Positions 2,365 through 29,275 of a DNA stretch of 59,876 bases are shown here, in pieces (position 1 is the stretch's first letter; each line of letters starts with the position of its first letter). The notes beneath the pieces were generated by a model that was not told the DNA's origin, made no database searches, and worked only from the letters and a program-made list of their open reading frames with translations. Made by a program: the position numbers and the translations under genes. Origin of the DNA: an uncultured Polyangiales bacterium (GTDB lineage: Bacteria > Myxococcota_A > Polyangia > Polyangiales > CAYWAT01); assembly GCA_964456305.1 (NCBI GenBank), contig CAYWAT010000001.1, positions 23,001-82,876 on the forward strand, in the 5' to 3' direction.

Positions 2365-2444
2365 GCGACGAGGGTAACGTAGTTACTTCATGCCCTCAAA
2401 AACTCAGCTCTTATGGATTGTGAGGGGATGACAATGCTTTTTTA

Positions 2445-3584: not shown

Positions 3585-3697
3585 CTTGAATGTGTTTTAA
3601 TTGATTGCTCCAGGAGCAGGAAAACAGTGCTTATCTCTATCATGCTAATAGCTATACATGTTTTTTCTTTTTCCATTATGGAATGCTCTGTTTCAAA

Positions 3698-4465: not shown

Positions 4466-4485
4466 TCAATATATAAGCAAAGAAT

Positions 4486-4501
4486 TGGCATGGAGTTCGC
4501 A
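4486..4501 (+). promoter_or_regulatory. candidate sigma-54 (-24/-12) promoter, TGGCAT-N5-TCGCA
   Basis: TGGCATGGAGTTCGCA has the GG (4487-4488) and GC (4499-4500) dinucleotides at the canonical 12-nt offset. Caveat: the predicted transcription start would be only about 3-4 nt before the GTG start at 4515, leaving no room for a leader. Patterns of this looseness are also expected several times by chance in 60 kb. Confidence 0.2.
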
Positions 4502-4514
4502 TCGTATATAAGGT

Positions 4515-8428: not shown

Positions 8429-8730
8429 CTGTCTAAATCGTTCAGTGGATTTCGTCTTTGATCATTCACTGTGCTGTGTCTGCGATGATTCTTCTGATGT
8501 CTTTGCGACTTATGTAACCCTTTGATTCAACGCGATGCGGCTGACTCTGCATTTTAGGATGTGTCCTTGATGACGAATTGATGAATTTCGTATTCTTACG
8601 GATAACGATCCAGGTCAGCGTATCATGCGCATAGAGGGAAAATCTACGCTTTCTCTCTGGGCCCACTTTCCTCTTCTCATGAGTGTAAGAGGTTTGTTAC
8701 GCTTTCCATGTGTATTCTGGTGGGCAACAT

Positions 8731-11510: not shown

Positions 11511-11540
11511 TCACCATGCTTCGGGTGGAGCGTACGTTGG

Positions 11541-12893
11541 ATGATGTTGATCAAGGTTCAACGTAAAGCCTTATGGGTGAGCACAGCAGCAATGTTATGT
11601 GCATGGTCCAGCTTGGGAGCGGCAGAGTCTGTGGCATCGCTCGAAGGTGTGCGCGAACGTTTGGCTCATGGTGAAAAAAAATCCGCCTATCGCATGCTCA
11701 AGCGTCTCGTTGCAGAGGGGAATCGCGAGCCCGACGCCTTTCTATTTTTAGGGGTGCTGACCCGCGAGCAAGGCAGTGAGCATTACGACGCGGCTATCGC
11801 TTGGTTTGAACGCGGTCTTGGCTATGACCCGCATTATCCTGCCCTCTTGCTTGAGCTTGCGGTAACCTATTCCTGGGCTGACCAATACGCGAAGTCGATT
11901 GCAACCTACGATCGATTGCTAGGTTTGCAGCCAGACCACCGCGATGCGCAGTTGGGCAAAGCACGGGTGTCCGTGTGGGCCGGTAAGCATGAGGATGCTT
12001 TAGCGATTTATCAGCAGGTCGTGCAGCAGGAACCCAAGCATATCGAGGCTCTACGCGGGATTGCCTTGATTCATCGCATACGCATGCGTTTCGATGAATC
12101 GCGTCGCTACTACCATACGGTGCTGGCGCAAGCGCCTGAGGATGAGGAATCCAAAGAAGGTTTGCGGGAGATTGCGCAGGCTACGCGTTGGCAGCTAGAA
12201 GCCGGTGCTATTTTAGCGGGCAGTCCGTCTCAGTCGCTGCAGTTTGGTGGTCTTGCTAGCGTCGCCTATAAACTGAACCCCGAGGTGACGCTGCGTGCGC
12301 GTTACGTTGCCACAGCACAGCAGGTGTTGCTCGGTCGTGCCGATGAGCTGGGCGATGTAAGTGTGCAGCGCGAGATTCAAAATCTGCAGCATAACGCCGA
12401 AATCAATGCCAGTTTCAAGATCATCGAGTCCTTAACTCTATCGCCGCAATATGGCGTACGCGTCGTTGAGGAGAACGTCACGCATTTGGTTGGGCTGCGC
12501 CTTGATTGGAAGTTTCATCCTCAGTTGGTTTTATTAGGCGGCATGCGACCGGGTTTTTCACACGACGCTGTCATCGAAGCTCTGCTCGATACGGGCATCC
12601 AGTATATTCCCCTCGAGCATCTTTGGCTCATGGTGCAGGGTTTTGTCTTTGTGAATACAGAGTCGCAGCGTAACTGGTCAACATTATTCACCACCTGGAT
12701 TGATTTTTTGAATCCTGTGGCTTTTAAAGTTGGCGCTGGAGTAGGGCAGATACAGTCGGATATTAGCGTGCAATTCTTGGCTGCGATCAATGTATTGATC
12801 ACACGCGATTTTGAAGTCGCAATTAACTATGAAATGCAGCAAATTTTTATCGAGCGTCACATGGGGCAGCTGTCCTTGATATTGAGGATCTAA
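11541..12893 (+). CDS. TPR-repeat protein with C-terminal beta-barrel-like half (small BcsC/PgaA-like outer-membrane export candidate)
   Basis: A signal peptide (AAMLCAWSSLGAAES) is followed by about 200 aa of TPR-like repeats (AIAWFERGLGYDPHYPALLLELA.., YDRLLGLQPDHRDAQLG..). The next roughly 230 aa have alternating hydrophobic/polar strands typical of an OM beta-barrel. The function is inferred from architecture and context only. Confidence 0.55.
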   Translation: MMLIKVQRKALWVSTAAMLCAWSSLGAAESVASLEGVRERLAHGEKKSAYRMLKRLVAEGNREPDAFLFLGVLTREQGSEHYDAAIAWFERGLGYDPHYPALLLELAVTYSWADQYAKSIATYDRLLGLQPDHRDAQLGKARVSVWAGKHEDALAIYQQVVQQEPKHIEALRGIALIHRIRMRFDESRRYYHTVLAQAPEDEESKEGLREIAQATRWQLEAGAILAGSPSQSLQFGGLASVAYKLNPEVTLRARYVATAQQVLLGRADELGDVSVQREIQNLQHNAEINASFKIIESLTLSPQYGVRVVEENVTHLVGLRLDWKFHPQLVLLGGMRPGFSHDAVIEALLDTGIQYIPLEHLWLMVQGFVFVNTESQRNWSTLFTTWIDFLNPVAFKVGAGVGQIQSDISVQFLAAINVLITRDFEVAINYEMQQIFIERHMGQLSLILRI

Positions 12894-12900
12894 ATAACAA

Positions 12901-15126
12901 ATGCTGGCGAGTCGACTTAAGCTTGGGCGTATCGGTTTTGCATTCAGCATCATGTCAGTGCTGCTTTTGTTAACAAATGCCAACGCCTTATCTCAAGACG
13001 AAAATCATCAAGTGCATCGATCGGCATCAGAGACAGAGTCTTTTCGCTTGATGCCCATAGAGCGGCCACTGGTGCTCAAGGGAAGTGAGAGTAGTGCAGA
13101 ATTTTCTATCAACATATCCGATGGTGTCGTTGTTGAACGCGATATAATTCTTTCCTTGCGAGGTAATGTTTCAGAGTTGATTGATGCAAATAAGTCGACA
13201 TTAACAGTGGAGGTCGATCGTCGACCTTTGCGTACTGTTTGGCTATCACGAATTCTGGTTAAGTCATCGGATGACAAAGACAGTGGGCGATCCTTTGCGC
13301 TTGTCATCTCCCTGCGTGATCTCAGTGCTGGATTGCATAACCTGCGTGTGCGCAGTCACTTGCTGATCGATGATGACCCTTGCTTAGACAAGTACGCGGA
13401 TGAGGCATGGATTAAGCTTTCACCGAAGAGCAAGGTATCGGGATATCGCCAGGTCATGCATCGCAAAGACTCAGGTGACCTTAGCCAACTGCAGTCCATA
13501 TGGTCTCGTGATAACTTGTCCATTGCTCTGAGTCCCCCTGCAGCGTTAACCCCCAAGAACGCTCTCGCGGCAATCGAATCCGATCATATGATTCGCGGCA
13601 TGGGCTTTACGCCTCGCTATGAGGCCTCGCCTACGATGGATACGGATGCCAATGACTATGCGGGTGTGTTGCGTTTACGCGTATTAAAGCAAGCCGACGA
13701 TGTTGCCGAGTCTCTGGTTGGCGCTTTGCAAAATGCCCCCAAAGATGCGCATGCGCTTGTTCATTTGGTCGGTTCCGAGCTCACGCTGCTGGCTCGTTCC
13801 GATGCCCACTTGCAGGATGCGGTGCGCATGGTGGCGCTGCCGCAGGTACGGGCGATGTGCCTGGCGTCGCATCCTTGTCTTTTGGGACCGCGCATGCGTA
13901 GGCGTCTGGGATCGGCGCAAGAACAAAGCTTAGGTCGGCGTCATAATACGGGTGCTGATGACCCAACCCAGGTTTTGACCCTGGCTGATGTGGGCTTTCC
14001 GCGCGGTTGGGTGGCCAAAGGGGCGGGCAAGCACACCTTGCGTTTTGTATGGCAGCGACCTTTTTATTGGACTGTCGATCAGTACCCCAATCTACAACTC
14101 TTTGTGCGCTGGTCGCAGGGTGCGCCTTGGCATGAAAAGGGCACTGTTTTGTCTGTTCAAATCAATGGCGTGCCCATTTCCTCGTGGCACTTCGCGCAGC
14201 AGAATAAAAAAGACGGCGTATTTGATTTGCGCCTGCCTGAGGAGCTTTGGCAGGATGAGGCTTGGGTGTTTGAAATCGTCGCACAGCTACGCGCTAATGA
14301 CGACGTTCCCTGTACCGTGACCCGTGATGAGGAGCTCTGGCTCTCCCTTGCTCCAAGCAGTCATCTTCGCGTTGCTCGCAGTGAACGGCAGGGTGAGGGG
14401 TTGGCCGCCTTTTTCCAGCAGGCTAAGAAGCATAAACGCAAGCCAGTCTTAGGCTGGCGCGGACGCTTGGAGTGGCCGACCCTCTTTTTATGGGCATCTG
14501 CACTGTATCCCTTTGCGGTGGAAATTCCGGCGTTGCCATGGCGTTGGGAAGAAGGCAAAAAAAATCAGCGTGCCATGCGCATCATCGCCTTTGGTCATCA
14601 TCATGATACGCGGGGGAGTTTGCGTCGTCGTCGTGCCGGCAACCCGGCTGCACAATTTTGGGTTGATGTGGCTGGCCGCTTTGGGATGCCCTTAGTGCGC
14701 GTCGATGAAAGCGTTCGACTTGTCCATCATCAAGGCAGTAAGCAGAAGGGCGCATGGTTAGAGATCAATTTTCCACATCCGCAGATCAGTTCGGATGACG
14801 ATAATGCATGGGCTGGTTTTCCGCCGGACTACACACAGCTCGTCGGTCGCGAAGTGCTGTGGATAGAGGGTCAGTGGCATAATCTCGAGGACCCCTCGTC
14901 GCAGGCCAAAACAAAGACGGTGCATTATTCTAAAAACTCGCCTTTGGCTGCCCTTAGACAGAAGGCCCATCTTCCCAGTGACGAAGAAAACTTGCTCACG
15001 CGCATTAATCTCATTTGGGCATCATGTTCGGTGATTTTGCTTGTCGGCATTGCTATCTATTGGTGGCGTCGACCTCGGAACAAAGACGATGTTCATGTGT
15101 CTTCTGTGGAAGAGCATTCAGGATGA
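12901..15126 (+). CDS. BcsB-like periplasmic synthase subunit with C-terminal membrane anchor
   Basis: It has a signal peptide and a single C-terminal TM helix (LIWASCSVILLVGIAIYWW). Two internally repeated halves each show the BcsB-type pattern. Examples are LKGSESSAEFSINISDGVVVERDIILSLRGNVSELIDANKSTLTVEVDRRPL, DDPCLDKYADEAWIKL, LSVQINGVPISSW and DDVPCTVTRDEELWLSL. Compare E. coli BcsB: LRGINPNGSIEFGM..LNLEYTPSPSLLPVQSQLKVYLNDELM and QDVCEKPASTTLWLDV. Recognised from memory, not searched. Confidence 0.65.
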   Translation: MLASRLKLGRIGFAFSIMSVLLLLTNANALSQDENHQVHRSASETESFRLMPIERPLVLKGSESSAEFSINISDGVVVERDIILSLRGNVSELIDANKSTLTVEVDRRPLRTVWLSRILVKSSDDKDSGRSFALVISLRDLSAGLHNLRVRSHLLIDDDPCLDKYADEAWIKLSPKSKVSGYRQVMHRKDSGDLSQLQSIWSRDNLSIALSPPAALTPKNALAAIESDHMIRGMGFTPRYEASPTMDTDANDYAGVLRLRVLKQADDVAESLVGALQNAPKDAHALVHLVGSELTLLARSDAHLQDAVRMVALPQVRAMCLASHPCLLGPRMRRRLGSAQEQSLGRRHNTGADDPTQVLTLADVGFPRGWVAKGAGKHTLRFVWQRPFYWTVDQYPNLQLFVRWSQGAPWHEKGTVLSVQINGVPISSWHFAQQNKKDGVFDLRLPEELWQDEAWVFEIVAQLRANDDVPCTVTRDEELWLSLAPSSHLRVARSERQGEGLAAFFQQAKKHKRKPVLGWRGRLEWPTLFLWASALYPFAVEIPALPWRWEEGKKNQRAMRIIAFGHHHDTRGSLRRRRAGNPAAQFWVDVAGRFGMPLVRVDESVRLVHHQGSKQKGAWLEINFPHPQISSDDDNAWAGFPPDYTQLVGREVLWIEGQWHNLEDPSSQAKTKTVHYSKNSPLAALRQKAHLPSDEENLLTRINLIWASCSVILLVGIAIYWWRRPRNKDDVHVSSVEEHSG

Positions 15127-17085: not shown

Positions 17086-17168
17086 AAGCTGTGTGGACAT
17101 ATAGAATACACATCGCATCGATTAAATACGTATTCTTTACTGGCTTTTCTACATCATGTGATCTAGGG

Positions 17169-17185
17169 TGGCGCCAACTTTTGCA
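17169..17185 (+). promoter_or_regulatory. sigma-54-like motif TGGCGC-N6-TTGCA (spacing one nt longer than consensus)
   Basis: TGGCGCCAACTTTTGCA lies 50 nt upstream of the ATG at 17235 of the PKS. Both half-sites are good, but the GG-to-GC offset is 13 rather than 12 nt, which usually abolishes sigma-54 function. Confidence 0.2.
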
Positions 17186-17234
17186 GGTGTTGTTAACATC
17201 TGCGGAGTTTGAGCCGTCCTTTCATCCTCAACTC

Positions 17235-20200
17235 ATGGTGTTGCCTATGGAGAGAGATGCGTTCGCGCAAAAGCCTCACGATGTTCAACAGAAAGAGGCT
17301 ATGCAAGGCCGCTTAGGTTTTGCACAAGGAGTCGAAGAAGACCTCGAAAATTCTTCGAGCATAGCTGTTATCGGCATTGGTTGTCGTTATCCCGGTGCCA
17401 GTAATCCCAAGCAACTTTGGGAAAACATTCTTGCTCGGCGTCAGCAGTTTCGACAAATGCCTGATTGTCGTCTGCCTCTATCTGAGTATCACCATCCTGA
17501 CCCTAAACATCCTGAGAAAATCTATAGCACGCGCGCTGCCGTGATGGATGGTTTTCACTTTGATTGGGCGACACGACGCATCCCTAAATCAACCTATGAG
17601 CACGCCGATATCGCTCACTGGCTTGCTCTCGATGTCGCCTTAGATACGCTCGACGATAGCGGTATACAGCAAGCGCTTCTTCCACGCGATAAAACAGCGG
17701 TGTTTCTGGGAAATACCCTGACAGGCGAGCAGTTTCGTTCCATTTCAATGCGCCAGCGATGGCCCTTTGTCGAGAAGGCTGTGCGCACTGGATTTCGGAG
17801 CCAAGGATTAACGGGCTCTTCCTTCGATGCTGCCATTGAAGCGACTGCCGAAGCCTTTTTATCGGTTTTCCCCGAAACAGACGAAGATACCTTAGCAGGT
17901 CTGCTTTCTAACACCATTGCCGGGCGTATTTGCAACTACCTCGATCTCCAAGGTGGAGGCTATGTGGTGGATGGTGCTTGCGCCTCGTCGCTGCTTGCCG
18001 TGATTAATGCCTGCGAGCGACTTTCGTTGGGTGAAGTGGACATCGCGTTTGCGGGCGGTGTGGATATCAGTCTCGATACCTTTGAGTTGATCGGCTTTGC
18101 CAAAGCTGGCGCCTTAACGCCTGATATCATGCGTGTTTACGATGAGCGCGCCAATGGCTTCATCCCCGGTGAAGGCTGTGGTTTTGTGTTGCTCAAGCGC
18201 TTTCAAGATGCCTTGCGTGATAACGATTACGTATACGCATTGCTGCGGGGTTGGGGCGTTTCCTCTGATGGCAAGGGCGGTATTACCGCGCCTGCGAGTT
18301 ATGGTCAGTCTCTAGCCCTTGAGCGTGCGTATATCAAAGCGGGTTATTCGCCGCAGTCGCTCAACTTTATCGAAGGTCATGGTACCGGGACACGTGTGGG
18401 CGACAAAGCGGAGCTCAAAGGCATTCAACTTGTTCTCGATCGTTTTAATGGAAAGCAAAATCTAGATTCTAATCAAGAACAAGAACGCCATGTTGGGGTA
18501 ACCTCCTTCAAGTCTTTGGTCGGACACACCAAGGCAGCGGCGGGCATCGGTGGCCTTATTAAAGCGATTTCTGCGGTCAATCGACGTGTGGTTCCACCCA
18601 CTGCAGGCTGTGCTTCTCCCAGTCCCGTTTTTAGTAACGAAACTCCTTCTCTTTATCCTGTATTAGAAGGGGTTGTTCATCCTCCTGAAGCGACGCTTCG
18701 TGCAGGGGTTTCTGCCATGGGTTTTGGCGGTATCAATGCTCATATTACCCTGCAGTCTGCTCGTTCGCCGGCAGCGCGTTTGTGTCCTGATATCGACGAG
18801 CAATGTCTTCTTGCCTCGGCGCAAGACAGTGAAGTCTTTGTGCTGGGTGCTGCAACATGGCCTCTGCTTATCGATGCATTGGGTGCTCTTCGCAGTCGTG
18901 TGGAAGGCTTGAGCTTGGCTGAGCTGATTGATCTCAGTGCGCATCTTGTTCGCACCTATGAGCCTTCTGTGTGTACTGTGGCTCTCGTAAGTGATAGTCC
19001 AGCAGCTCTGGTTGATGCCATCGATGCGCTCTGTCAGCAGTTACTGGATGCGCCGCCTTGTTGTGAGCAGCATCGTCCCTTTGCCTTTTGGCATTCTCAC
19101 GATCGCAAGCAGTGGGCTTGTGAGCGACCTGATGTGCACTCTGCTGCGCGTATTGCCTTTGTGTTTCCAGGCCAAGGAAGCCAAGCGCTTAACTGCGCTC
19201 GCATTTTGGTGAAGCGTTATGTCTGGGCAAAAAGACTTGTTGAGCAAGCGGATGCTTGGATCGCTGAAGTGGGCGGTTCTCCTATTGCTTCTTGCCTTTA
19301 TCCACCAGCTCTGGGTGAGTTAGGCGATTCACAATCGCAGGAGCATGCGGCGCGTTTACAGGGTCCTGCCTATGCGCAAAACGCCATCGTGCTGAGCGCG
19401 CTTTTATGGACGCGTTATCTGCGTTCTGAGTTGGGCGTGGAGCCTGTTATCACTGCTGGACATAGCTTAGGCGAGCTGGTGGCTTTGTATGTTGCGGGGG
19501 CCTTGGATGAAAAAGCACTGGTTCAGCTCACTGCGATTCGCAGTCAGTACATGGCCGCCTGTGGTGAGGGGGCGATGGCTGGTTTTGGTTGTGATGCTGA
19601 GACCGCAGAGTCTCTGCTTGCCTATAGCGATGCCTATGCTGTGGTAGCCAATCGCAATAGTCCCCGGCAAACTGTGCTTTCCGGACAGTTCGCGGCTATC
19701 GATCAATTGCTCGAAGTTGCCAAAGAGAAGGGCATCGCGGCGCGTAGGCTTGCAGTTACAGGCGGCTTTCATTCGCATTTGGTGGAGTCCGCTGGCAAAG
19801 CCTTAGCAGCAGATGCGCGCGTCGCGGCAGAAGCAAAACTCTCGTTGCCTCTGGCCAGCAGTATCGCGACAGTAGGCAAACTGAAGGGCGATATCGATGT
19901 GCGGGCGCATGTGGGCAAGCAGGTCGCGGCTCCCGTCGATTTTATTGCCGCCACTGAAGTGCTTGCCGAAGACAGCGATGTGATCCTCGAATTGGGGCCC
20001 GGCCAGGTCTTGTCGCGACTCATCGGCGATACTCTTGCCGGTCGTGAACAGTCTCCCTTGTGCATGCCTATCGAACCCACCGCGGGCCAAGGGTGGGCGC
20101 ATGCTCAGCTTCTCGCAGCCCTTTCTATATGCGGTCATGCCTCTGCGTTGGATAAAAGCTTTGGCGCGCGTTTGCATCGACCTTTTGTCGATGTGGCTGA

Positions 20201-23200
20201 ACGACGTTTCATTGAAAGTCCTTGTGAACGTCCCATGACGGTGACCCAGGCTCACTTGCAGGCGAACGATGCAACGGCTGGCTCTGCGCAGACTTCCATA
20301 AGCGGTATCTTTGACGACGCCTGGGCCGAGTTGGATCCTCAGACGCGTCAGGCTTATCAAGACGAGCGCGCCACTCTCATCGATCAACTGCAAGGCGTTT
20401 TAGCACGCGATGTACAGCAGTTTATCGGGCAATATCGACGAGATACGCAGGGTGGCATGAGCGCAGCTAAGACATCGCCCCTTTCCTTGGCCTCGTCTTC
20501 GTCTACAGAGGAGCAGATAGACTCGGTATCGGTGGCGGTGCAATCCGCGGATCTCGCGGCCATGCTCTTGCAGCTCGTCGCTGAAAAGACCGGCTTCCCG
20601 CTGGAGTCCCTGTCGATGCAGCAGCGATTGCTAGATGACTTGCGCCTCGATTCGATCAAAGCCGCTGAGTTTATCGTTGAAGCAGCGACTCAGGCATCCG
20701 TGGATACCACCGCTCTCAATCCCATGAATTTTGCCAACGCATCCTTGGACGAAATTCGCGGTGCCCTGCTGGATCTTGCGCCTGAGCATGCGGCCACCGA
20801 TGCTGCCACTCAAGAGACGACAGAGTCATCGATGACCTTTCCGGCAACGCCGTGGACGCGCAACTTTGATCCCATCTGGGAGCCTGAACCTTTAGAGGCT
20901 GATTCCAGTCTCTCCCAGTGGGCTGATACCTCGGTGCTTTTATGTGCCGATGCCTCGTCGACGATGGCTGATGCCCTTGCTGAGGCCCTGGGCGCAGAGG
21001 GAGTGCCCGTCCGTAGATATCGCTGGGGAGATTCGCCAGAGCCTCTTAGCGCAGAGCGTTTCAGTGATGTGATCGCCTTCGTGCCCGCTGATCGCGAGGC
21101 GGAGGGTGAAGTCATGAAGGCGATCGAAGCCTGGGTTGTTCTGTTATGTGAGCTTGCCCAGCTTGCGGGTTCCAAACAGACAACGCCGCTGCGATTGCTC
21201 TGGGTTCAGCAAAGCTCGGCCTGGGCGCCGGAGGGGCGTGTGTGGTCTGCCGATGCCTTTATCTGCAGCCTGGCCTTGGAGCGTCCGCATCTATGTGCGC
21301 GATCGCTGTTAGTACATACCCGTCTGTCTTCTGCTGACTTGCTACGTTGTCTGAGTGCAGAGCGCGCGGCGATGTCTTTGCCCCATGCCTCTGTGATGGA
21401 GCGAGTGTGGTTTGCCCCCGATGAAATGCGTCACGTGTTGCGTTTGTCTTTGAGTCAGCCTGCCTCTTACAAGCCGCGTCGCAATTCTCTCAAGGCGGGT
21501 GATGTCGCTCTGGTCACGGGTGGGGCCAAAGGGATCACCGCCGAATGCGCGTTGGGCTTGGGCCAAGCTCTGGGTCTCAAGATGGTGCTCGTGGGTTCAT
21601 CTCCCGAAGAGAGCGTGACCCAGCAACTTAAACGCTTTGAAGATGCTAATGTCGATGCTCTGTATCTGCAGTGCGATCTCGCAGATCCCGACGCTGTCAA
21701 AGAGCTGGTGGCATCGGTGCGAGAACGCGTGGGTCACATTGATGCCCTCATTCACGGTGCGGGTCTTAACCGTCCTGGTGTTCTGATGGCGCCTAAAGCT
21801 CAGGCGGCTTTAGCTGAGATGGCGCCTAAACTTATGGGTGGGAGCACGCTACTTGCTGCTCTGGATGACGATCCGCCCCAACTGGTGGCGATGTTTAGTT
21901 CGGTCATCGGGGTGATCGGCATGATGGGCAATGCCTGGTATGCTTTTGCGAACGAGTGCTTGGACCTGCAGCTGGGTCAGTTTTTAGCGCGTCATCCCGA
22001 GGTCGAGGGGGTTAGCCTAGGCTATTCCGTTTGGGAAGATGTGGGCATGGGCGTCAATCTGGGGTCACTGGAGACGCTGAAAAAGCTGGGTATTGACACC
22101 GTGCCCGTTAAGGAAGGGGTGCAGCGTTTCCTGCGCTTGCTCAGCCATGACTCCCAGCATCGGCAAGTTGTGATTGGGGGGCGTATGGGAGCGGTTGAGA
22201 CCGGAAAACCCGTCGCGCTGCCTCCGCCTCAACGCAAGCATCAGTTTCTTGAGCGTGTATTGTATGTGCATCCGCAGCTCGAAGCCTTGGTCGAAAGCAC
22301 CCTCGATTTCGAGCGCGATGCCTTTCTGCACGACCATGTTTTTCAGGGAAACTGCTTGATGCCAGCCGTGGTTGTGATGGAGGCGATGGCCCAAACGGTG
22401 GCTTACCTTTTGGGGCGCGATTCGATCACCCCTCTCGAAGTACAAGACCTGGTGTTTATGCAGCCCGTGACTGTGCCTGAAAACGGGCGTCGGACCATTC
22501 GCATTCATGCCATGGTTAAGGAGGTTGAACCGGGGGACCTTCATAAAGAACGCTCGACGAAGGTGGCACTGAACCTGCGCTCAGAAGTGGATCGCTTTGC
22601 CCGTGATTGGGTAAGCGCAACTTTTTCACTTAACGAAAGCAGCACGCCTCTGTTGTCTGACAGCTTTAGCAGCAACGTGTCGTCTCTGGAAAAGAAGGCT
22701 TGGAGTCCTCTCAATCGAGGGCTTTACGGCAGTCTGCTTTTTCATGGCAAGTCTTTTGAGCGCATCGAAAAGGTTTACGAATTAAGCGAACGCAATTGCC
22801 TGTGTCGCATTGCTCAGCGTGCTGATCAGCCCTTTGTGTTGGGCGATCTCTATGCTCGTGATGCCATTCTGCAAAGTATGCTTTTTGTAACCACGCCTCA
22901 GCTTGCCTTGCCCAAAAAGATCAGTGCCTGGCGTATCCATCGTAAGGTCCCTGTGCATCAGAATTCAACTCTCGCGCGGTCTTTAAAAAGCCATGCAAGC
23001 GCCAAAGAGATCGGCATCGAATCCTGTGTGAAAGACGAGCATGGAGCGCTACTGGAAGAGCTGCAGTGGACAGCCGAATCAGCTTCTTCTGTGGTTATTG
23101 ATAAGATGCTGCCAACGCCAGATCAGCTTGAAAGTGGTTGGAGTTATTACGGTCGTGAAATTCATCAGTCCATCGAATCTGTATGCCGAGAAAACAACTT

Positions 23201-23864
23201 TGAATTGCCAGAGTTTTTTGCTCGTTTAGCGCCTGGCATTTCACGTCAGTCCAAGCGTGAAAGACGAGATTCACATCGTGCCTATCTTGAGCGCATTGTG
23301 GGATCAATGGTTGAACTCAAGTGGACGCGGCAAGGTAGACCTACCATTGCTCATCACAGCAATTATAAGTCCATCTCCCTGACGCACGATGAAGACCTTT
23401 GTGTGTACATGCTGGATGCGGAGGCAGAGCATATGGGCTGTGATATTGTGGCTCTGCAAGGCAGAACCGAGAGCGACTGGCAGGCCCTTTTGCCCTATGA
23501 ATCGCATGCCTCTTTGCGCCGCCTTCTCGATGATGGCGCGGGCGCTGATAACGCCGGATCGGTCGTGTGGTCATTGCTCGAAACATTAACCAAATGTGCT
23601 TATGATTCTGCATCGCTTGTTAAAGGCATGAGTCTGGTGAAGCGAGGTTTGAACTGGTGGATTCACGACATTAATGTCGACAAAATTAATCGACGGTTTT
23701 GCTCTGTGAATATTTCGATCAATCGTCGATCCTATGTGCTTTCTTGGTCTGTTCCCCCTCGTGATATGCCAAGACAATCATTGATACGTGCACGGTCGTC
23801 ACGAGCGGAAAACAAGACCGAAGACATGTCTGCAAGTCCATTTCGGCTTGTCGCCAAAAAGTGA
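17235..23864 (+). CDS. iterative type I polyketide synthase with enediyne-PKS (PKSE) domain order KS-AT-ACP-KR-DH-PPTase
   Basis: KS: IAVIGIGCRYPG, active-site Cys in DGACASSL (codon 17979-17981), and the EGHGTGT and GHTKAAAG His motifs. AT: GHSLGE (Ser codon 19464-19466). ACP: DDLRLDSIKAAEF (Ser codon 20652-20654). KR: VTGGAKGIT (21513-21539). DH: HDHVFQGNCLMP (22329-22364). C-terminal Sfp-type PPTase-like motifs: ISLTHDED (23373-) and GCDIV (23436-23450). The N-terminal stretch (QFRQMPDCRLPLSEYHHPDPKHPEKIYSTRAAVMDGFHFD..HWLALD) matches my memory of SgcE/CalE8-type PKSE proteins. There is no TE, ER or MT domain. The start is uncertain (ATG 17235 or 17247); the ORF-track start at 17091 is unlikely. 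Confidence 0.9.
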   Translation: MVLPMERDAFAQKPHDVQQKEAMQGRLGFAQGVEEDLENSSSIAVIGIGCRYPGASNPKQLWENILARRQQFRQMPDCRLPLSEYHHPDPKHPEKIYSTRAAVMDGFHFDWATRRIPKSTYEHADIAHWLALDVALDTLDDSGIQQALLPRDKTAVFLGNTLTGEQFRSISMRQRWPFVEKAVRTGFRSQGLTGSSFDAAIEATAEAFLSVFPETDEDTLAGLLSNTIAGRICNYLDLQGGGYVVDGACASSLLAVINACERLSLGEVDIAFAGGVDISLDTFELIGFAKAGALTPDIMRVYDERANGFIPGEGCGFVLLKRFQDALRDNDYVYALLRGWGVSSDGKGGITAPASYGQSLALERAYIKAGYSPQSLNFIEGHGTGTRVGDKAELKGIQLVLDRFNGKQNLDSNQEQERHVGVTSFKSLVGHTKAAAGIGGLIKAISAVNRRVVPPTAGCASPSPVFSNETPSLYPVLEGVVHPPEATLRAGVSAMGFGGINAHITLQSARSPAARLCPDIDEQCLLASAQDSEVFVLGAATWPLLIDALGALRSRVEGLSLAELIDLSAHLVRTYEPSVCTVALVSDSPAALVDAIDALCQQLLDAPPCCEQHRPFAFWHSHDRKQWACERPDVHSAARIAFVFPGQGSQALNCARILVKRYVWAKRLVEQADAWIAEVGGSPIASCLYPPALGELGDSQSQEHAARLQGPAYAQNAIVLSALLWTRYLRSELGVEPVITAGHSLGELVALYVAGALDEKALVQLTAIRSQYMAACGEGAMAGFGCDAETAESLLAYSDAYAVVANRNSPRQTVLSGQFAAIDQLLEVAKEKGIAARRLAVTGGFHSHLVESAGKALAADARVAAEAKLSLPLASSIATVGKLKGDIDVRAHVGKQVAAPVDFIAATEVLAEDSDVILELGPGQVLSRLIGDTLAGREQSPLCMPIEPTAGQGWAHAQLLAALSICGHASALDKSFGARLHRPFVDVAERRFIESPCERPMTVTQAHLQANDATAGSAQTSISGIFDDAWAELDPQTRQAYQDERATLIDQLQGVLARDVQQFIGQYRRDTQGGMSAAKTSPLSLASSSSTEEQIDSVSVAVQSADLAAMLLQLVAEKTGFPLESLSMQQRLLDDLRLDSIKAAEFIVEAATQASVDTTALNPMNFANASLDEIRGALLDLAPEHAATDAATQETTESSMTFPATPWTRNFDPIWEPEPLEADSSLSQWADTSVLLCADASSTMADALAEALGAEGVPVRRYRWGDSPEPLSAERFSDVIAFVPADREAEGEVMKAIEAWVVLLCELAQLAGSKQTTPLRLLWVQQSSAWAPEGRVWSADAFICSLALERPHLCARSLLVHTRLSSADLLRCLSAERAAMSLPHASVMERVWFAPDEMRHVLRLSLSQPASYKPRRNSLKAGDVALVTGGAKGITAECALGLGQALGLKMVLVGSSPEESVTQQLKRFEDANVDALYLQCDLADPDAVKELVASVRERVGHIDALIHGAGLNRPGVLMAPKAQAALAEMAPKLMGGSTLLAALDDDPPQLVAMFSSVIGVIGMMGNAWYAFANECLDLQLGQFLARHPEVEGVSLGYSVWEDVGMGVNLGSLETLKKLGIDTVPVKEGVQRFLRLLSHDSQHRQVVIGGRMGAVETGKPVALPPPQRKHQFLERVLYVHPQLEALVESTLDFERDAFLHDHVFQGNCLMPAVVVMEAMAQTVAYLLGRDSITPLEVQDLVFMQPVTVPENGRRTIRIHAMVKEVEPGDLHKERSTKVALNLRSEVDRFARDWVSATFSLNESSTPLLSDSFSSNVSSLEKKAWSPLNRGLYGSLLFHGKSFERIEKVYELSERNCLCRIAQRADQPFVLGDLYARDAILQSMLFVTTPQLALPKKISAWRIHRKVPVHQNSTLARSLKSHASAKEIGIESCVKDEHGALLEELQWTAESASSVVIDKMLPTPDQLESGWSYYGREIHQSIESVCRENNFELPEFFARLAPGISRQSKRERRDSHRAYLERIVGSMVELKWTRQGRPTIAHHSNYKSISLTHDEDLCVYMLDAEAEHMGCDIVALQGRTESDWQALLPYESHASLRRLLDDGAGADNAGSVVWSLLETLTKCAYDSASLVKGMSLVKRGLNWWIHDINVDKINRRFCSVNISINRRSYVLSWSVPPRDMPRQSLIRARSSRAENKTEDMSASPFRLVAKK

Positions 23865-23870: not shown

Positions 23871-25349
23871 ATGGAATCAACAAATCCCGATCAGCGTGTC
23901 CCGGTACGGCGTTACTCAGAACCCTTTCGTTCGCGTCGCATCCAGTCTCCTGCCTTTGCGAAGGGGCTGGCTGTTTCTTTTGAGTACCAGAACAAACCCA
24001 TTAAAGGCGTTGGGCAGGACTTGTCGGCTGGTGGTGTGCGGGCAACCTTTCCCACCCATGAACTAAGCAAGGGGGAGACGTTGCGTGTGGGCGAGTCACT
24101 CGATGGTGTGCGGGTGAGTTTCTTCGATCGCGCTGTATTTGAAGGCGATGCCTGTGTGCGTCACGTCAATCACGATCAGCAGGAGTGTTCCATCGGACTG
24201 GAGTTGAATGGGATGAACGTCGCGATTCACTCTATTCAAAGCGACTCGGTGCGTTTGGATCTGCGTTATCGACTCGATCTTTTGCTGCGCGATATGGCAG
24301 AACTAACAGCGCAGGTGGAGAGCGATTTTGAGCAATGGCTCCTTGATAGCAAAGCTGCGCTGAGCAAACTCCGTGACTTTCTCGATCAGGAAGAAAAATC
24401 ATGGGCGCATCTGGATTGGATCACGCGCCATCAGAATGTGAAGATCATTCTTGACGAAGCCGGCAAGAAACTCGTGCCCCTGTTTAACGATTTTCGTGAC
24501 GCGCTTAATTTCCGCGTCGCCAAATTTTCTGAGGCAGAGCACAAAAAATGGCGCCCCATCTTTAGGCAGCATCTTGGCGAATTATTTATGGCCTGTCCTT
24601 TTACGCATCGGGCATTTCATAAACCCATGGGCTACGCGGGTGATTACGAGCTGATGAGCATGCTTTACCGTGCTGAGCCGGAGGGCGATTCCCTCTTTGC
24701 TAAGGTACTGAATATGCACTCCAAGGACGAGCCGGCGGGACGTGCCACCATTAATCGTCTTGAGTACTTGGGTGGTATTTTAAGCGAGCTTGCCACCTCA
24801 ACTGAGGCGCATCCCTTAGAAGTTGCAAGCATCGGTTGTGGAGCTGCACGCGAGCTCGTGCATTTATTGACGCGTAAGCCTGAATTGGGTCCCAAACTGA
24901 AAATCGCTCTGGTGGATCAAGATTCTCGCGCCCTCGATTTGTGTGAGCGCACCCTAACGCCACTGAGTCGCAAAACAGGCGCCCGTTTTAGTTTTATCGG
25001 CGATCCTATCCAAAGCTTGATTCAGGAGAAGAATCTTGGCGATTGCTTAGGAAAAAGGGATCTAATTTATTCCGCAGGCCTGTATGATTACCTAGAGGAC
25101 GATGTTTTCGTGGCGCTCACTCGAGTGCTCTACGATGCACTAAAGCCTGGAGCGAAGCTTGTGATCGGAAATATGGCCAACCATAACCCCACCAAAGAAT
25201 GGATGGCGTATGCCATGGACTGGTATCTGATTCATCGTTCTCCCGATGAGCTCATGGAACTGGGAACGCGCGTTACAAGCGATAGCAGCAAGGTGTTCGT
25301 AGATTCAGAGCCAGAGGGGGTGAACTTGTTTGTGCACCTGCGTCGATGA
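23871..25349 (+). CDS. PilZ domain fused to class I SAM-dependent methyltransferase (possibly PhcB-like)
   Basis: The N-terminal PilZ signatures are QRVPVRR (RxxxR) and, downstream, DLSAGGVRA (D-x-S-x-x-G), ending in a beta-barrel-like CSIGLEL. The C-terminal methyltransferase has motif I LEVASIGCGAARE, the post-I acidic site IALVDQD, motif II DLIYSAGLYDYL and motif III LKPGAKLVIGN. It starts 6 nt after the PKS stop. Confidence 0.8.
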   Translation: MESTNPDQRVPVRRYSEPFRSRRIQSPAFAKGLAVSFEYQNKPIKGVGQDLSAGGVRATFPTHELSKGETLRVGESLDGVRVSFFDRAVFEGDACVRHVNHDQQECSIGLELNGMNVAIHSIQSDSVRLDLRYRLDLLLRDMAELTAQVESDFEQWLLDSKAALSKLRDFLDQEEKSWAHLDWITRHQNVKIILDEAGKKLVPLFNDFRDALNFRVAKFSEAEHKKWRPIFRQHLGELFMACPFTHRAFHKPMGYAGDYELMSMLYRAEPEGDSLFAKVLNMHSKDEPAGRATINRLEYLGGILSELATSTEAHPLEVASIGCGAARELVHLLTRKPELGPKLKIALVDQDSRALDLCERTLTPLSRKTGARFSFIGDPIQSLIQEKNLGDCLGKRDLIYSAGLYDYLEDDVFVALTRVLYDALKPGAKLVIGNMANHNPTKEWMAYAMDWYLIHRSPDELMELGTRVTSDSSKVFVDSEPEGVNLFVHLRR

Positions 25350-27979
25350 ACACCAAGGATCAGGATACCGCCGAGCAGTCGCTATACCAAAGCTACACCT
25401 CAACCTGGGGTATTAGCGCTGCTCGCATTTCCTGCATCCTGACGGGCACGCTCATCCTTATGGGATGGGTGTTGGAGTGGTCTGCGCACCCCGATAAGAT
25501 ATGGGATTTTCTGGTGGTGCGCATCGCCGCAGCCTCGACCGATTTTGCCTTGTTGGGGCTGACTTTTTTGCCGGGTGCCAAGCGTTATTCAAAAGCGCTC
25601 TTTCTCGCGCCGATTTTTGTCGTGGTGATTGCGGTGCAGGTGATGATTCATCGTTTGGGGGGCTATGTTTCGCCCTATTACGCTGGGTTGAATCTTTGCA
25701 TTCTGGGCTTTGCCATCACCGTTACGCTGCCGCTGAAAGAGACCATCATTGTTTGCTGTTCGGTGGTGCTTTGTTGGCTGCTTGGCGGGTTGTTTAACCT
25801 CGATGAGTTTTCCTTTGGCGCCTTTTTTAATAACGTATTCTTTTTGAGTGGCACTGCCGCAATCGCCATTGGCTCGACTTTGATTCGCAATCGGGTCGCG
25901 GAAAAAGAATTCCAGTCTTATTACGAAAACCGGAAATTAACCGAGCTCGACAAGCATAAAGACCACTTCTTCGCCAATGCCTCTCACGAGTTACGAACAC
26001 CGCTGGTATCGTTATCGTCAACGGTACAGATGATGCTTGAAGGCGGTGTGGCTGATCCCACCCAGCATAAGTTACTCGTATCTAGCCAAGAGGCGCTCGA
26101 GGATATGCTGGAAAACGTCAATGATATTTTGCTCAAAACGCGGGCAAGAAAAGGTACCCTCGATGCGCGTTGGGCGCAGATTCAAGTAGCTTCTTTTATC
26201 GATCGCTCCCTGTCGGTCTTTCGACCTTTGGTTAAAAAGCGAAACATCGAGCTCGTCTTTCACAGTGGGGTAGAAGACGAGCTAAGTGCTTATGTAGACC
26301 GGCGTCATCTCAAAAAGATCGTCAATAATCTTTTGGGTAATGCCATCAAGTTTACTGAGCGCGGCAAGATTGAAGTGACCTTGTCTGCGGATGCCAAAGT
26401 TTGGCGCCTTAGCGTGAAGGATACCGGCAAAGGCATTCCGGAAAGAGACCTGCCGATGATTTTCGATCCTTTTGTGCAGGCCAGCAATAATGAGCAACGC
26501 GAAGTACAAGGCACAGGTCTGGGCTTGTCGCTTGTCAAAGACTTGGTCGAACTGCATCAAGGGCGCATCGACGTAAGCAGTGTGTTGGGAGAGGGTAGCT
26601 GTTTTACGGTGACGTTGCCTCTAGGTGATGCACACGTCGACTTCGCCAAGCTCGATGCCTCCGATGTGGCTGACGAACAAGACGAGCGGGTGAATCTCAA
26701 GCTACGCGCGAAAGAGGACGTCGATTTGAGCCCCTTTGCTAAGCATGAGCTGGGTTTGCCTAATTTGCTCATCGTCGAAGACAATCCCCAGGTTCTACAG
26801 GTTCTTGCCTATGCATTGCTGGGCAAATACAACCTCAACTTTGCTTGGGATGGGCAAGAGGGGCTTGAGCGTATGCGTGAGCTCAACCCCGACCTGGTCA
26901 TCAGCGATATTATGATGCCGCGCAAAAACGGCTATCAGCTTGCCGAGGAGATGAAGCAGGACCCACAACTTCGTAAGATTCCGCTGATTTTATTGACCTC
27001 TAAGGTAGAAAAAGACGCGCGCATTTTGGGCTTTAAAAAAGGCGCTGATGAATATCTGTCAAAGCCCTTTAATCATCAAGAAGTGCACACACGCATAGAA
27101 GGCCTGTTAGCGCGCAAGAAAATCGAAGCCGAAGCGATTCATGCCGAAAAGCTAGTGTCGATTGGTCAGATGGCGGCGGGAATTGCCCATGAAATTAACA
27201 ATCCCATTAGCTGCATTAACAGTGCTGCCCCGATGATGACAAAAATTATCGACAAAATGGTGGCTAAAGGACTGGAAAGTAACAAAGAAGTAGATTTGAT
27301 GCGTGAGTGTCTCGAGGATATCTCTGAGAGTGGGCGTCGTGTTTATGAGCTAACCTCGGCCTTGAAAGGGCATATTCACCCTGGTTCGGACCGTTTCGAG
27401 ACACAGGATATTCACCCTGACTTAGACCGCACGCTGCGTATTCTTAAGTCGGCTAATAACGTTCCGAATATCGAATTCCAAACAGACTATCAGCTCTCAA
27501 GCCATGTTTCTTGTCAGGTGGGTCATCTCAATCAAGTCTGGATGAACCTGATGCAAAATGCGGTTGATGCGATGGAAAACGCACGTGCTAAGCGCGATCA
27601 AGAAAGTCATGAAGAACGCAACTCTCGCATTGTTGTTCGTACCTATGAAGATGCCAATTTTGCCTTTGTTTGTATCGAAGATAACGGTCCTGGAATCCCC
27701 CTGCACTTACAGGAGAGGATTTTTGATCTGTTTTTCACCACCAAGCGTTTGGGCAAAGGTACAGGTATGGGACTTTACATGTGCAAGCGCATTATTGAGG
27801 AGCATGGTGGGTCTTTGTCCCTCGAGAGTGATGCAAGCACGGGTACGCGTTTTATTGCGCAGCTACCCTTGAATGTAGCCGATGACCGGTACCAGAGGAG
27901 CGATGTGGTTTTGAATCAGACAACGGTGGATAACCTGAAATCTGTCCAATATCCCCATGTTGTGTCATCCTACGACTAG
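25346..27979 (+). CDS. polytopic membrane sensor with two complete kinase cores separated by a receiver (TM6-HisKA-HATPase-REC-HisKA-HATPase)
   Basis: About six closely spaced hydrophobic helices have no sizeable periplasmic loop. Kinase 1 has H-box SHELRTPL, N-box LLGNAIKF, and the DTGKGI and GTGLGLSLV G-boxes. The receiver has LLIVEDNPQ..LVISDIMMPRKNG..SKP. Kinase 2 has H-box AAGIAHEINNPIS, N-box LMQNAVDA, and the DNGPGI and GTGMGLYMC G-boxes. The start overlaps the upstream stop (ATGA). Confidence 0.85.
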   Translation: MNTKDQDTAEQSLYQSYTSTWGISAARISCILTGTLILMGWVLEWSAHPDKIWDFLVVRIAAASTDFALLGLTFLPGAKRYSKALFLAPIFVVVIAVQVMIHRLGGYVSPYYAGLNLCILGFAITVTLPLKETIIVCCSVVLCWLLGGLFNLDEFSFGAFFNNVFFLSGTAAIAIGSTLIRNRVAEKEFQSYYENRKLTELDKHKDHFFANASHELRTPLVSLSSTVQMMLEGGVADPTQHKLLVSSQEALEDMLENVNDILLKTRARKGTLDARWAQIQVASFIDRSLSVFRPLVKKRNIELVFHSGVEDELSAYVDRRHLKKIVNNLLGNAIKFTERGKIEVTLSADAKVWRLSVKDTGKGIPERDLPMIFDPFVQASNNEQREVQGTGLGLSLVKDLVELHQGRIDVSSVLGEGSCFTVTLPLGDAHVDFAKLDASDVADEQDERVNLKLRAKEDVDLSPFAKHELGLPNLLIVEDNPQVLQVLAYALLGKYNLNFAWDGQEGLERMRELNPDLVISDIMMPRKNGYQLAEEMKQDPQLRKIPLILLTSKVEKDARILGFKKGADEYLSKPFNHQEVHTRIEGLLARKKIEAEAIHAEKLVSIGQMAAGIAHEINNPISCINSAAPMMTKIIDKMVAKGLESNKEVDLMRECLEDISESGRRVYELTSALKGHIHPGSDRFETQDIHPDLDRTLRILKSANNVPNIEFQTDYQLSSHVSCQVGHLNQVWMNLMQNAVDAMENARAKRDQESHEERNSRIVVRTYEDANFAFVCIEDNGPGIPLHLQERIFDLFFTTKRLGKGTGMGLYMCKRIIEEHGGSLSLESDASTGTRFIAQLPLNVADDRYQRSDVVLNQTTVDNLKSVQYPHVVSSYD

Positions 27980-29275
27980 GTGGAATACGAAGCCATGCCC
28001 ACACAAAACGACCCCGTTCAATCGCAGTTAAGACCGACGTCGAAGCAAATTCCTACCTGGCGTGAGTATCTCATTCTGCTGGTCGACGATGACTTGCAGG
28101 TCTTACGCCAGTTGCGCCGTGTGTTGGAAATCGAGGGGGAGTTTAATGTCATCACAGCGAATAGCGCTGAGGAGGGCCTTGATCTCATCAAAAACCAACC
28201 CATTAAGCTCGTGATTTCTGACCAAAAAATGGAGCCAGGTATGGGTGGCGTGGAGTTTCTGGCGAAGGTCAAAGAGATCAATCCGGACATTCTTACCGCT
28301 ATTTTATCAGCCTATTCAGAACCCGAACTTATTCTTAAGTCGGTTAATGATTCAGGCGCGTTCCAATACATGGTCAAGCCATGGAATGATGACGAGCTCA
28401 TCATGAAGGTGGACCAGTGCCTGCAGTATTACCAAGCCCAGTCGCAGATACGCAAAATGGCAAAAGCCAATCAAGAGCTGGTCGCGCGCTTGGCCACGCA
28501 AGAGAAGTTTTCCCTGATGGGTGGCTTAAGTACCACTCTTTACACGCGTTTTTTTCATGCCCTGCGTTATGCCTACAAGTGCTCACAAAAAAGGTTGAGC
28601 AAGCTCAAGTCAGGATCCGATGAAGAGACGCGTGAGCAGTTTGCTCGTGAGAGCCTCTGTGGCATGAGCATGGCGTTGTCGCAGTTTCGTCTAATGGCTG
28701 AGGTATACAACCAAAAGCCTTACTTTGAGCAAGCCGACCTCAATTGTGTGATCAGCGACTGCATTGAAGAGGGCGTCGAAAAAGCCAAGTTGCAGGCTAA
28801 TATCGAGATCAAGGTGGAGCAGGATATCAGCGAGCTACCCAATCTTTGGATCGACCGCGAGCTTTTTGTCTGTGCCTTGCGCAGTGTGTTTGAGAATGCT
28901 GTGCGCTTTAATAAGCCCGAAAATCCGCGTATTGTATCGATCACAGCGAAGTGCATTAAGCAGCCGCGTTGGCTGGTTCAGTTGCAGATTCGAGACCACG
29001 GCAAGGGTGTATCTTTGCCGATGGCGGAAAAAGTCTTCGAGCCTTTGCATGGCGCTTCGTCGCCGCCTTCTTTTGAGCATCTGCAGCCCAATGCGTTGGG
29101 GGCCTATAACTTTACGCCCTACAATCACGTGGGGCTTGGGCTTACAGTCGCGCGCTGGTGCTTGGCGCGACACGAGGGAACCCTAGAGCTCCTCAACCCA
29201 GGCGAAGCAGGTGCAATCTTTCAAATCGAGCTACCCATGGTGCTCTCAAAAGTTGCCGATCAGGTAGGCGTATAA
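27980..29275 (+). CDS. receiver domain fused to a kinase-like HATPase domain with degenerate H-box (PhcR-like architecture)
   Basis: REC: LILLVDDDLQV..LVISDQKMEPGMGG..VKPW. The C-terminal half has an N-box-like FENAVRFN, DHGKGV and GLGLTVA. The dimerisation/His region (GGLSTTLYTRFFHALRYAYK) lacks a canonical H-E-x-x-x-P-L box. The GTG start immediately follows the upstream stop; ATG 27995 is an alternative. Confidence 0.75.
   Translation: MEYEAMPTQNDPVQSQLRPTSKQIPTWREYLILLVDDDLQVLRQLRRVLEIEGEFNVITANSAEEGLDLIKNQPIKLVISDQKMEPGMGGVEFLAKVKEINPDILTAILSAYSEPELILKSVNDSGAFQYMVKPWNDDELIMKVDQCLQYYQAQSQIRKMAKANQELVARLATQEKFSLMGGLSTTLYTRFFHALRYAYKCSQKRLSKLKSGSDEETREQFARESLCGMSMALSQFRLMAEVYNQKPYFEQADLNCVISDCIEEGVEKAKLQANIEIKVEQDISELPNLWIDRELFVCALRSVFENAVRFNKPENPRIVSITAKCIKQPRWLVQLQIRDHGKGVSLPMAEKVFEPLHGASSPPSFEHLQPNALGAYNFTPYNHVGLGLTVARWCLARHEGTLELLNPGEAGAIFQIELPMVLSKVADQVGV

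Follow-up and report, generated by a model that had tools for sequence, protein, structure and literature searches.

An enediyne-type polyketide synthase heading a conserved, phc-like methyltransferase and kinase operon in an uncultured Polyangiales bacterium

Here we describe a polyketide synthase (PKS) gene at positions 17235 to 23864 of a 59,876-nucleotide (nt) stretch of DNA from an uncultured Polyangiales bacterium (contig CAYWAT010000001.1, assembly GCA_964456305.1), the whole of which is referred to below as the window. The gene encodes an enzyme with the domain order of the enediyne PKSs (PKSEs) and is the first of four conserved, translationally coupled genes, the last three of which, encoding a methyltransferase (MT), a membrane sensor kinase and a receiver-kinase, mirror phcB-phcS-phcR of Ralstonia. 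It was originally predicted, from the letters of the window alone, that this PKS is an orphan enzyme with a non-enediyne purpose. Our analysis supports the view of a PKSE-like enzyme outside enediyne biosynthesis but not its orphan status, since the MT and kinases downstream turned out to be conserved operon partners resembling the phcBSR quorum-sensing cassette. A reading in which the PKS feeds a PhcB-like MT, the MT makes a methyl-ester signal and the kinases sense this signal with input from cyclic di-GMP (c-di-GMP), the product thus being a signal and not an antibiotic, could well apply, although we hold the complete chain with slightly more doubt than confidence.

The synthase and its enediyne-type relatives

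The PKS is contained in one long stop-bounded open reading frame (ORF) on the plus strand (17091-23864) of the window, whose overall G+C content is 52.8%. An ATG at 17235 gives a protein of 2209 amino acids (aa) with its stop at 23864; the start codon is ambiguous between 17235, 17247 and 17301, and the domain content is the same for each. All of the motifs on which the predicted domain order had been based were recovered, in that order, in this single ORF, namely DGACASS at aa 246 (nt 17970), GHSLGE at 742, LDSIKAAEF at 1138, VTGGAKGIT at 1427, HDHVFQG at 1699, ISLTHDED at 2047 and GCDIV at 2068. The gene and its parts are as follows:

17235..23864, plus strand: PKSE-like iterative type I PKS, 2209 aa, with the order ketosynthase (KS), acyltransferase (AT), acyl carrier protein (ACP), ketoreductase (KR), dehydratase (DH), phosphopantetheinyl transferase (PPTase) (Pfam; phmmer against SgcE, E 1.5e-242)
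17355..18608, plus strand: KS domain (Pfam; Cys249 in DGACASS, HGTGT at aa 382, GHT at aa 430)
19158..20042, plus strand: AT domain (GHSLGE with Ser744; Pfam Acyl_transf_1, 1.8e-25; NCBIfam FabD, 3e-40)
20547..20789, plus strand: single ACP (Ser1140 in DLRLDSIKAAEF; weak Pfam PP-binding match, E 0.0037)
21507..22199, plus strand: KR domain (TGGAKGIT; K1532, S1556, Y1569, N1573; Pfam KR, 3.4e-24)
22227..23084, plus strand: DH double hotdog (H1701 in HxxxGxxxxP, D1876; Pfam PKS_DH_N and PS-DH)
23112..23759, plus strand: Sfp-type PPTase domain (H2051, D2070, E2116 and K2120 kept)
23835..23861, plus strand: conserved C-terminal tail SPFRLVAKK, with the [S/N]PFxL ending shared among MT-linked PKSs

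Pfam matches cover the KS (aa 41-458; 3e-53 and 5.5e-26), the AT (aa 642-936), the KR (aa 1425-1580) and the N-terminal half of the DH (aa 1669-1761; 1.5e-11). The ACP match (aa 1111-1153) lies below threshold, and D1135, L1136, S1140 and I1141 are conserved in our alignment across the family and the true PKSEs. As predicted, Pfam detected no thioesterase (TE), enoylreductase (ER) or C-methyltransferase domain in the PKS. Conservation was checked in an alignment of 50 sequences made up of the window PKS, its relatives and four real enediyne synthases, in which the window PKS retains 294 of the 315 columns conserved at 92% or more. Among the retained residues are ACP Ser1140, K1532, S1556, Y1569 and N1573 of the KR, and His1701 and Asp1876 of the DH. 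Divergence is greatest in the DH, where 10 of 44 conserved columns are changed.

Four lines of evidence identify the C-terminal domain as an Sfp-type PPTase. As a single sequence, its 260 aa gave no match in Pfam or the PDB. Firstly, most relatives have a homologous stretch at the equivalent place (E 1e-10 to 1e-29); secondly, some of these relatives match the Pfam family ACPS, one of them (P0078) above the cut-off. Thirdly, a 32-sequence profile of the region matches Sfp (1QR0) at an E-value of 1e-5, with the SxSH, GxDxE and WxxxExxxK motifs in register in the profile alignment. Lastly, an AlphaFold model of the domain (predicted local distance difference test score, pLDDT, 85.9) retrieved in Foldseek a top 28 consisting entirely of PPTases of group II, among them PptT, PcpS and PptAb (E about 1e-7). 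The predicted PKSE architecture is thereby established down to its PPTase.

To place the enzyme, we used as PKSE references four real, cassette-bearing Streptomyces clusters carried on plasmids, including that of S. globisporus C-1027 (SgcE). A tblastn search of plasmids with the PKS ranked a Gloeothece PKS top (39% identity over 91% of the query), followed by the genuine Streptomyces PKSEs (33-36%). The window KS is 58% identical to that of Gloeothece and 47-49% identical to those of the four Streptomyces PKSEs, while a PfaA-like KS sited beside a PfaB gene reaches 35-36% and all other plasmid KSs at most 32.5%; identity to the PKSE superfamily (PKSEs plus their sister clade) is thus 47-59%, as opposed to at most 36% for any other KS tested. 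In a distance-based neighbour-joining tree of 58 KS domains (FabF root, 100 bootstrap replicates; CalE8 and DynE8 not in the set), PKSEs and the family group together (100% bootstrap support), as do the actinobacterial PKSEs of the four Streptomyces clusters (100%) and the non-actinobacterial family that includes the window PKS (99%). The PfaA-like KS falls outside the PKSE clade in the observed tree, and 41 of the 100 replicates place it with that clade. Judged by its KS, the window PKS is a member of the PKSE superfamily, nearer to PKSEs than to the ketosynthases of polyunsaturated fatty acid (PUFA) synthases, modular PKSs or fatty acid synthases (FASs), and within that superfamily it belongs to the non-actinobacterial sister clade, outside the clade of characterised enediyne-making PKSEs. 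The grouping with PUFA- or FAS-like enzymes that would have spoken against the original prediction was therefore not recovered, and the predicted kinship with PKSEs holds for the superfamily but not for the characterised clade.

It is extremely improbable that the enzyme is instead a subunit of a secondary lipid synthase of the PUFA or heterocyst-glycolipid type. PfaA is indeed the best-scoring NCBIfam model (526 bits, below cut-off), in a collection that contains neither an enediyne-PKS nor a PhcB model, and several relatives carry 2-5 tandem ACPs, as PUFA synthases do. However, SgcE matches the same model at a similar level (457 bits, likewise below cut-off), so the match does not discriminate, the window KS has the low identity to the PfaA-like KS given above, and the window PKS, in contrast to PfaA/HglE, carries a single ACP and lacks both PfaB/C/D partners and an ER. 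Of the 308 PDB matches to the full-length PKS, the 60 that were listed do not include DynE8.

In all four real enediyne clusters, E3 (DUF1702), E4 (CRTAC1/UnbV), E5 and the E10 hotdog TE lie within 7-9 kb of the PKS. The predicted absence of these genes from the vicinity of the window PKS was borne out and extends to the whole 59.9 kb. When C-1027 SgcE2-E11 were compared by phmmer with all window ORFs, taken stop to stop, of 50 aa or more, only the PKS was matched, and SgcE2-E5 found no other window ORF at E<=1 over the 17 kb upstream and 36 kb downstream; as a positive control, E2, E3, E4, E5 and E10 were recovered in a second real cluster. The same search found none of these five within about 10 kb around eight relatives. 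Likewise, when E10 and the fused E10-like domains described below were combined into a profile, this had no match in the window at E<=10; together with the SgcE10 search, this result agrees with the prediction that release depends on something other than an E10 TE. Pfam found no hotdog TE (4HBT family) on the remaining window ORFs, and the sole alpha/beta hydrolase that it detected among window ORFs lies 17 kb from the PKS, beside an AraC regulator. Since the E3/E4/E5/E10 cassette is missing, an enediyne product is unlikely, and we are highly confident that this is not an enediyne locus.

A true enediyne pathway with a split cluster, in which E3, E4, E5 and E10 lie beyond the window, is very hard to credit. 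The window is part of a longer contig of 82.9 kb and the domain architecture is identical to that of PKSEs, but the four real clusters keep these genes close to the PKSE, none was found in either flank or around the eight relatives, and the KS lies outside the clade of cassette-bearing enzymes. For genome mining this is a caution that a PKS gene alone is insufficient to call an enediyne cluster.

A conserved operon with a methyltransferase and two kinases

The PKS stop codon is followed at a distance of 6 nt by the MT gene, which overlaps the kinase gene by 4 nt, and the gap between the kinase and receiver-kinase genes is 0 nt. The partners of the PKS are:

23871..25349, plus strand: PhcB-like PilZ-SAM (S-adenosylmethionine) methyltransferase, 492 aa, 6 nt past the PKS stop
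about 23895-24218, plus strand: predicted PilZ barrel of the MT (model and motifs), followed by a helical region
about 24597-25346, plus strand: predicted class I SAM methyltransferase part of the MT (model and motifs)
25346..27979, plus strand: polytopic double histidine kinase, 877 aa, PhcS-like (Pfam), its start overlapping the MT stop by 4 nt
27980..29275, plus strand: receiver and HATPase_c protein, 431 aa, PhcR-like, with no DNA-binding domain (Pfam)

A consensus scan for a sigma-54 promoter before the PKS gave neither enrichment nor a site, and a similar sequence at about 17169-17185 is wrongly spaced.

The N-terminal part of the MT carries the PilZ signature, RxxxR at residues 9-13 and DLSAGG (DxSxxG), which is conserved in the aligned clade. 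Its Pfam PilZ match is sub-threshold (E 0.0037), and the AlphaFold model has a beta-barrel at residues 33-113. With these motifs on such a barrel, the domain has the features expected of a PilZ c-di-GMP receptor, and binding of c-di-GMP is predicted. The RxxxR region forms part of an invariant arginine cluster, R9, R13, R20, R22 and R23 (MT residues 1-24, nt 23871-23942). In Ralstonia PhcB, the substitution R22C, which lies outside the MT domain, reduces signal output (PMC6989110). An independent link to PilZ is provided by the related PKSs P0043, P0057 and P0119, in which a PilZ domain is fused ahead of the KS.

The AlphaFold model of the whole MT (pLDDT 92.1) matches small-molecule MTs in Foldseek (SgvM, MmcR, DnrK, 3OCJ). 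Dozens of MT relatives are named 'extracellular factor 3-hydroxypalmitic acid methyl ester biosynthesis protein', that is, PhcB, in JGI. A homology search seeded with a distant MT member returned Verrucomicrobiota only, and tblastn searches of plasmids with the whole MT and with its N-terminal half found no Ralstonia PhcB. The kinase has the layout transmembrane region-HisKA-HATPase-receiver-HisKA-like-HATPase with at least four transmembrane segments, and its best NCBIfam match is LvrA; this double kinase looks like a fusion of PhcS and PhcR. The type of receiver and HATPase_c protein that follows it also occurs in the loci L059 and L060 listed below and in many loci without a PKS.

The pairing of PKS and MT is found in at least eight independent contigs, with the MT within a few bases of the PKS, and the MT-linked PKSs are spread over at least two KS-AT neighbourhoods. 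In the other linked loci the PKS is 36-43% and the MT 28-53% identical to the window protein, and the kinases of L002 and L059 are 52-54% identical to that of the window:

L001: MT 50% identical to the window MT; no further genes visible (contig end)
L002: MT 45%; kinase 52% identical to the window kinase
L003: MT 42%; no kinase or receiver-kinase
L059 (Polyangiales metagenome-assembled genome): MT 53%; kinase 54% identical, and receiver-kinase
L060/L061: MT 49%; all four genes, with the receiver-kinase placed first
L142: MT 44%; kinase present
L143: MT 28% (partial gene at contig end); no further genes visible

We also surveyed 126 loci of MT relatives in GTDB genomes and JGI metagenomes. Among these a PKS is adjacent only where the MT is at least 41% identical to the window MT; the double kinase directly follows the MT in 46 loci, and a receiver-kinase is nearby in several. 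We regard it as probable that the PKS and the MT-kinase cassette are functionally coupled.

The PKSs that carry this cassette differ from many of their relatives at the C-terminus. According to a jackhmmer search from SgcE10, tandem SgcE10-like hotdog domains are fused C-terminally in 70 of the 120 closest PKS relatives; they are absent from the window PKS, its nearest relatives and the MT-linked PKSs included in the jackhmmer set. Most MT-linked PKSs end instead in an [S/N]PFxL tail, which takes the form [S/N]PFxLxx[K/R]x in L001, L002, L003/L063, L059 and L062 (e.g., SPFRLVAKK, NPFRLVVRA) and resembles the first strand of the TE fused to the relatives (RFPLTFKD). At the sequence level the tail is consistent with truncation of a TE at the point where the MT cassette now begins; it may be what remains of the first TE strand or a peptide that docks the following protein.

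Some relatives are megaproteins with the order PilZ-KS-AT-ACP(1-2)-KR-DH-PPTase-tandem E10-like TE-FAD domain, the last being similar to amine oxidases and phytoene desaturases. C-terminal extensions of this kind are found in P0016, P0025, P0043 and others, the N-terminal PilZ in P0043, P0057 and P0119, and some family members have up to five tandem ACPs. The closest TE-bearing relative of the window PKS, P0004 (L055, GCA_007131285.1), is located amid genes for ribosomal proteins, phenylalanyl-tRNA synthetase and purine metabolism. Its stop codon overlaps a gene for a histidine kinase-receiver-SpoIIE phosphatase, a coupling to signalling without a biosynthetic cluster.

Proposed function and its alternatives

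The domain set leads us to infer a polyene or beta-hydroxyacyl product. The C-terminal Sfp-type domain most likely loads phosphopantetheine onto Ser1140 of the single ACP, whereupon the KS, AT, KR and DH, with no ER, would assemble malonyl units into a conjugated polyenoyl or 3-hydroxy-polyenoyl thioester; such a chain is expected of a self-priming, iterative enzyme that lacks an ER. The product that true PKSEs hold on their ACP is a 3-hydroxy-hexaenoyl chain of C16 length, which corresponds to 3-hydroxypalmitate in polyunsaturated form. In the proposed mechanism the acyl chain would come from the PKS instead of from primary fatty-acid synthesis, and the PhcB-like enzyme may methylate the carboxyl group of the released 3-hydroxy acid to give a diffusible methyl ester. 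This methylation would also block the decarboxylative dehydration that yields the heptaene in enediyne systems. The polytopic kinase encoded next door is the candidate sensor of the methyl ester, and c-di-GMP might gate its production through the PilZ domain. The proposal of a signal rather than an antibiotic follows from the conserved operon of a putative signal-making MT and sensor kinases.

The main rival to this chemical link is a purely regulatory one, in which the PKS product is a polyene pigment, antioxidant, lipid or hydrocarbon freed by an unlinked TE, and the cassette governs only the timing of PKS synthesis or activity without acting on that product. The MT, double kinase and receiver-kinase are widespread without a PKS in Polyangiaceae, other Myxococcota, Verrucomicrobiota, Planctomycetota and Oligoflexia; there is no PKS beside the MT relative in 120 of the 126 loci surveyed, and none at 41 loci in GTDB genomes. 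Since it is found without a PKS in most loci, the cassette is an independent unit that was joined by the PKS group, and because it works without a PKS the link could be regulatory and not chemical. Direct fusion of PilZ to some PKSs would fit allosteric control, and P0004, with its fused TE kept and a histidine kinase-receiver-SpoIIE gene following, suggests a general habit of coupling PKSs to signalling. On the other hand, gain of the MT cassette coincides with loss of the fused E10-like TE, the window PKS ends 6 nt before the MT gene at the point where the TE would start, the MT has the fold of small-molecule MTs, and no other release enzyme is encoded in the 59.9 kb. On balance we think a solely regulatory link rather unlikely.

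A second alternative is that the MT is a tailoring enzyme, C- or O-methylating the polyketide, during or after its assembly, at a hydroxyl or alpha-carbon to give a specialised metabolite, with the kinases as regulators. Its best Foldseek matches include C- and O-methyltransferases of natural products (SgvM, MmcR, DnrK, CurJ C-MT, TnmH), and the PKS has no internal C-methyltransferase. This is nevertheless improbable, given that members of the MT family mostly occur with a kinase but without a PKS, that the protein has a PilZ domain and relatives named PhcB in JGI, and that the PKS has no other conserved neighbours with tailoring, transport or resistance functions.

It should be noted that, besides the frequency of the cassette without a PKS, several observations weigh against a PKS-derived methyl-ester signal. 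A SAM methyltransferase cannot cleave a thioester, so that none of the readings accounts for the release step, and neither chain length nor degree of unsaturation is predictable from the PKS sequence. The best structural matches of the MT include enzymes acting on other positions than a carboxyl group. The PhcB assignment rests on JGI names derived from KEGG orthology and on operon architecture, and the name, carried by thousands of proteins from Verrucomicrobiota and Myxococcota in JGI, may be over-propagated. No PhcQ-type single receiver or PhcA-type LysR regulator was present among the window ORFs scanned by Pfam, although these may lie elsewhere. Finally, Val2072 occupies the position of Sfp Glu109 in the PPTase domain. 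We do not read this as inactivation, since the position varies in the PKS family (E, A, Q, L, V, M, T) and one genuine PKSE also has no Glu but Gln there.

If the chemical link is true, the 'enediyne-like' PKSs of sediments and soils gain a physiological role in signalling and not as antibiotics. A polyketide autoinducer with second-messenger-gated synthesis would then be directly testable, tying c-di-GMP to autoinducer synthesis.

Neighbouring genes and comparison with known systems

Upstream of the PKS, positions 898-15126 hold an exopolysaccharide-like locus that is not conserved near related PKSs:

898-2364, minus strand: membrane GT2 glycosyltransferase
2445-3584, minus strand: ATP-grasp enzyme
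5567-8428, minus strand: hybrid kinase with an HNOBA domain
8710-10161: sigma-54 response regulator
10158-11510: phosphogluco/mannomutase
11541-12893: TPR protein
12901-15126: BcsB-like protein with a signal peptide and C-terminal anchor

At 4515-5621 (plus strand), a response-regulator receiver domain is fused to a PIG-L family deacetylase (GlcNAc-PI de-N-acetylase type; Pfam), an output that seems uncommon for a two-component protein. For none of the three small proteins encoded upstream of the PKS, nor for the BcsB-like protein, the TPR protein or the phosphomutase, was there a counterpart next to a related PKS, and the upstream genes were ruled out as PKS partners on this ground. Elsewhere in the window, two ORFs of low complexity and strongly acidic composition, neither belonging to a Pfam family, are located at 34944-35705 (plus strand) and 41999-42385 (minus strand), one of them with repeated D-x-D-G-x-L-S/D stretches resembling calcium-binding repeats.

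Other PKSE-like PKSs have different neighbours. Three FAD-dependent halogenase genes directly follow the PKS on a plasmid of Gloeothece PCC 7822 (L046), and a further locus (L057) has one such gene about 4 kb upstream. A carotenoid-oxygenase (RPE65) gene is found near both of these PKSs and another beside a real enediyne cluster (L047). The context of L046 and L057 hints at halogenated or cleaved polyenes.

Compared with the characterised PKSEs (SgcE, CalE8, DynE8), the window PKS has the same KS-AT-ACP-KR-DH-PPTase order with a single ACP in one polypeptide, and its PPTase motifs (SxxH, CD(I/V)x, WxxxExxxK) align with theirs. It is about 270 aa longer than SgcE and sits in a signalling operon, not in an antibiotic cluster with E3/E4/E5/E10 genes. 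The PPTase domain shares the fold of Sfp-type (group II) PPTases, with its His, Asp, Glu and Lys in register with Sfp H90, D107, E151 and K155. It differs from them in having Val2072 (in GCDIV) at the second Mg-binding site, Leu in place of the Lys preceding the catalytic Glu, a fusion to the PKS and an extra tail of about 35 aa.

'Enediyne' KS sequences abound in marine sediments and are found in many phyla not known to produce enediynes. They have been read as a reservoir of new cytotoxins, and those of non-actinobacterial phyla form widespread, uncharacterised lineages, separate from every enediyne KS in MIBiG (Singh et al. 2023, PMC10308959). The description of this clade, previously known only as KS sequence tags, fits the window PKS and the 120 relatives closest to it, whose sources are cyanobacteria, Polyangiales, Desulfobacterota, Thermoactinomycetaceae, KSB1 and Methanoperedens. 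Whereas that study gives KS phylogeny and distribution only and suggests new enediynes, it does not contain the fused E10-like TE, FAD oxidoreductase and PilZ variants or the MT-kinase operon described here. No report of the clade's operon partners, fusion variants or Phc-like link was found in the literature searched, and nothing relevant emerged there on PilZ in combination with an enediyne PKS, on homologues of PhcB or on a pairing of PilZ and methyltransferase in myxobacteria. At least one sub-group of 'enediyne' KS carriers is thus without all other enediyne genes and tied to a signalling cassette and a predicted c-di-GMP receptor domain.

The closest parallel to this cassette is the phc operon of Ralstonia, which comprises the methyltransferase gene phcB, the sensor kinase gene phcS, phcR for a receiver and kinase with no DNA-binding domain, and phcQ, and whose signalling has been described as specific to that genus (PMC8578825). 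The window has the same gene order as phcBSRQ, the system of 3-hydroxypalmitic and 3-hydroxymyristic acid methyl esters (3-OH-PAME / 3-OH-MAME), with an MT, a membrane sensor kinase and a receiver-kinase, a likeness that rests on names and architecture. It differs in the dedicated PKS ahead of the MT, in a sensor that is a double kinase with an internal receiver, and in an MT that carries an intact PilZ signature. We tentatively suggest that this is a Phc-type system beyond Ralstonia and its close relatives, in which the signal would be a polyketide, a 3-hydroxy-polyenoic acid methyl ester, and the E10 TE would have been swapped for a PilZ-gated PhcB-like MT; if so, signalling of the Phc type would reach far beyond the genus to which it has been assigned.

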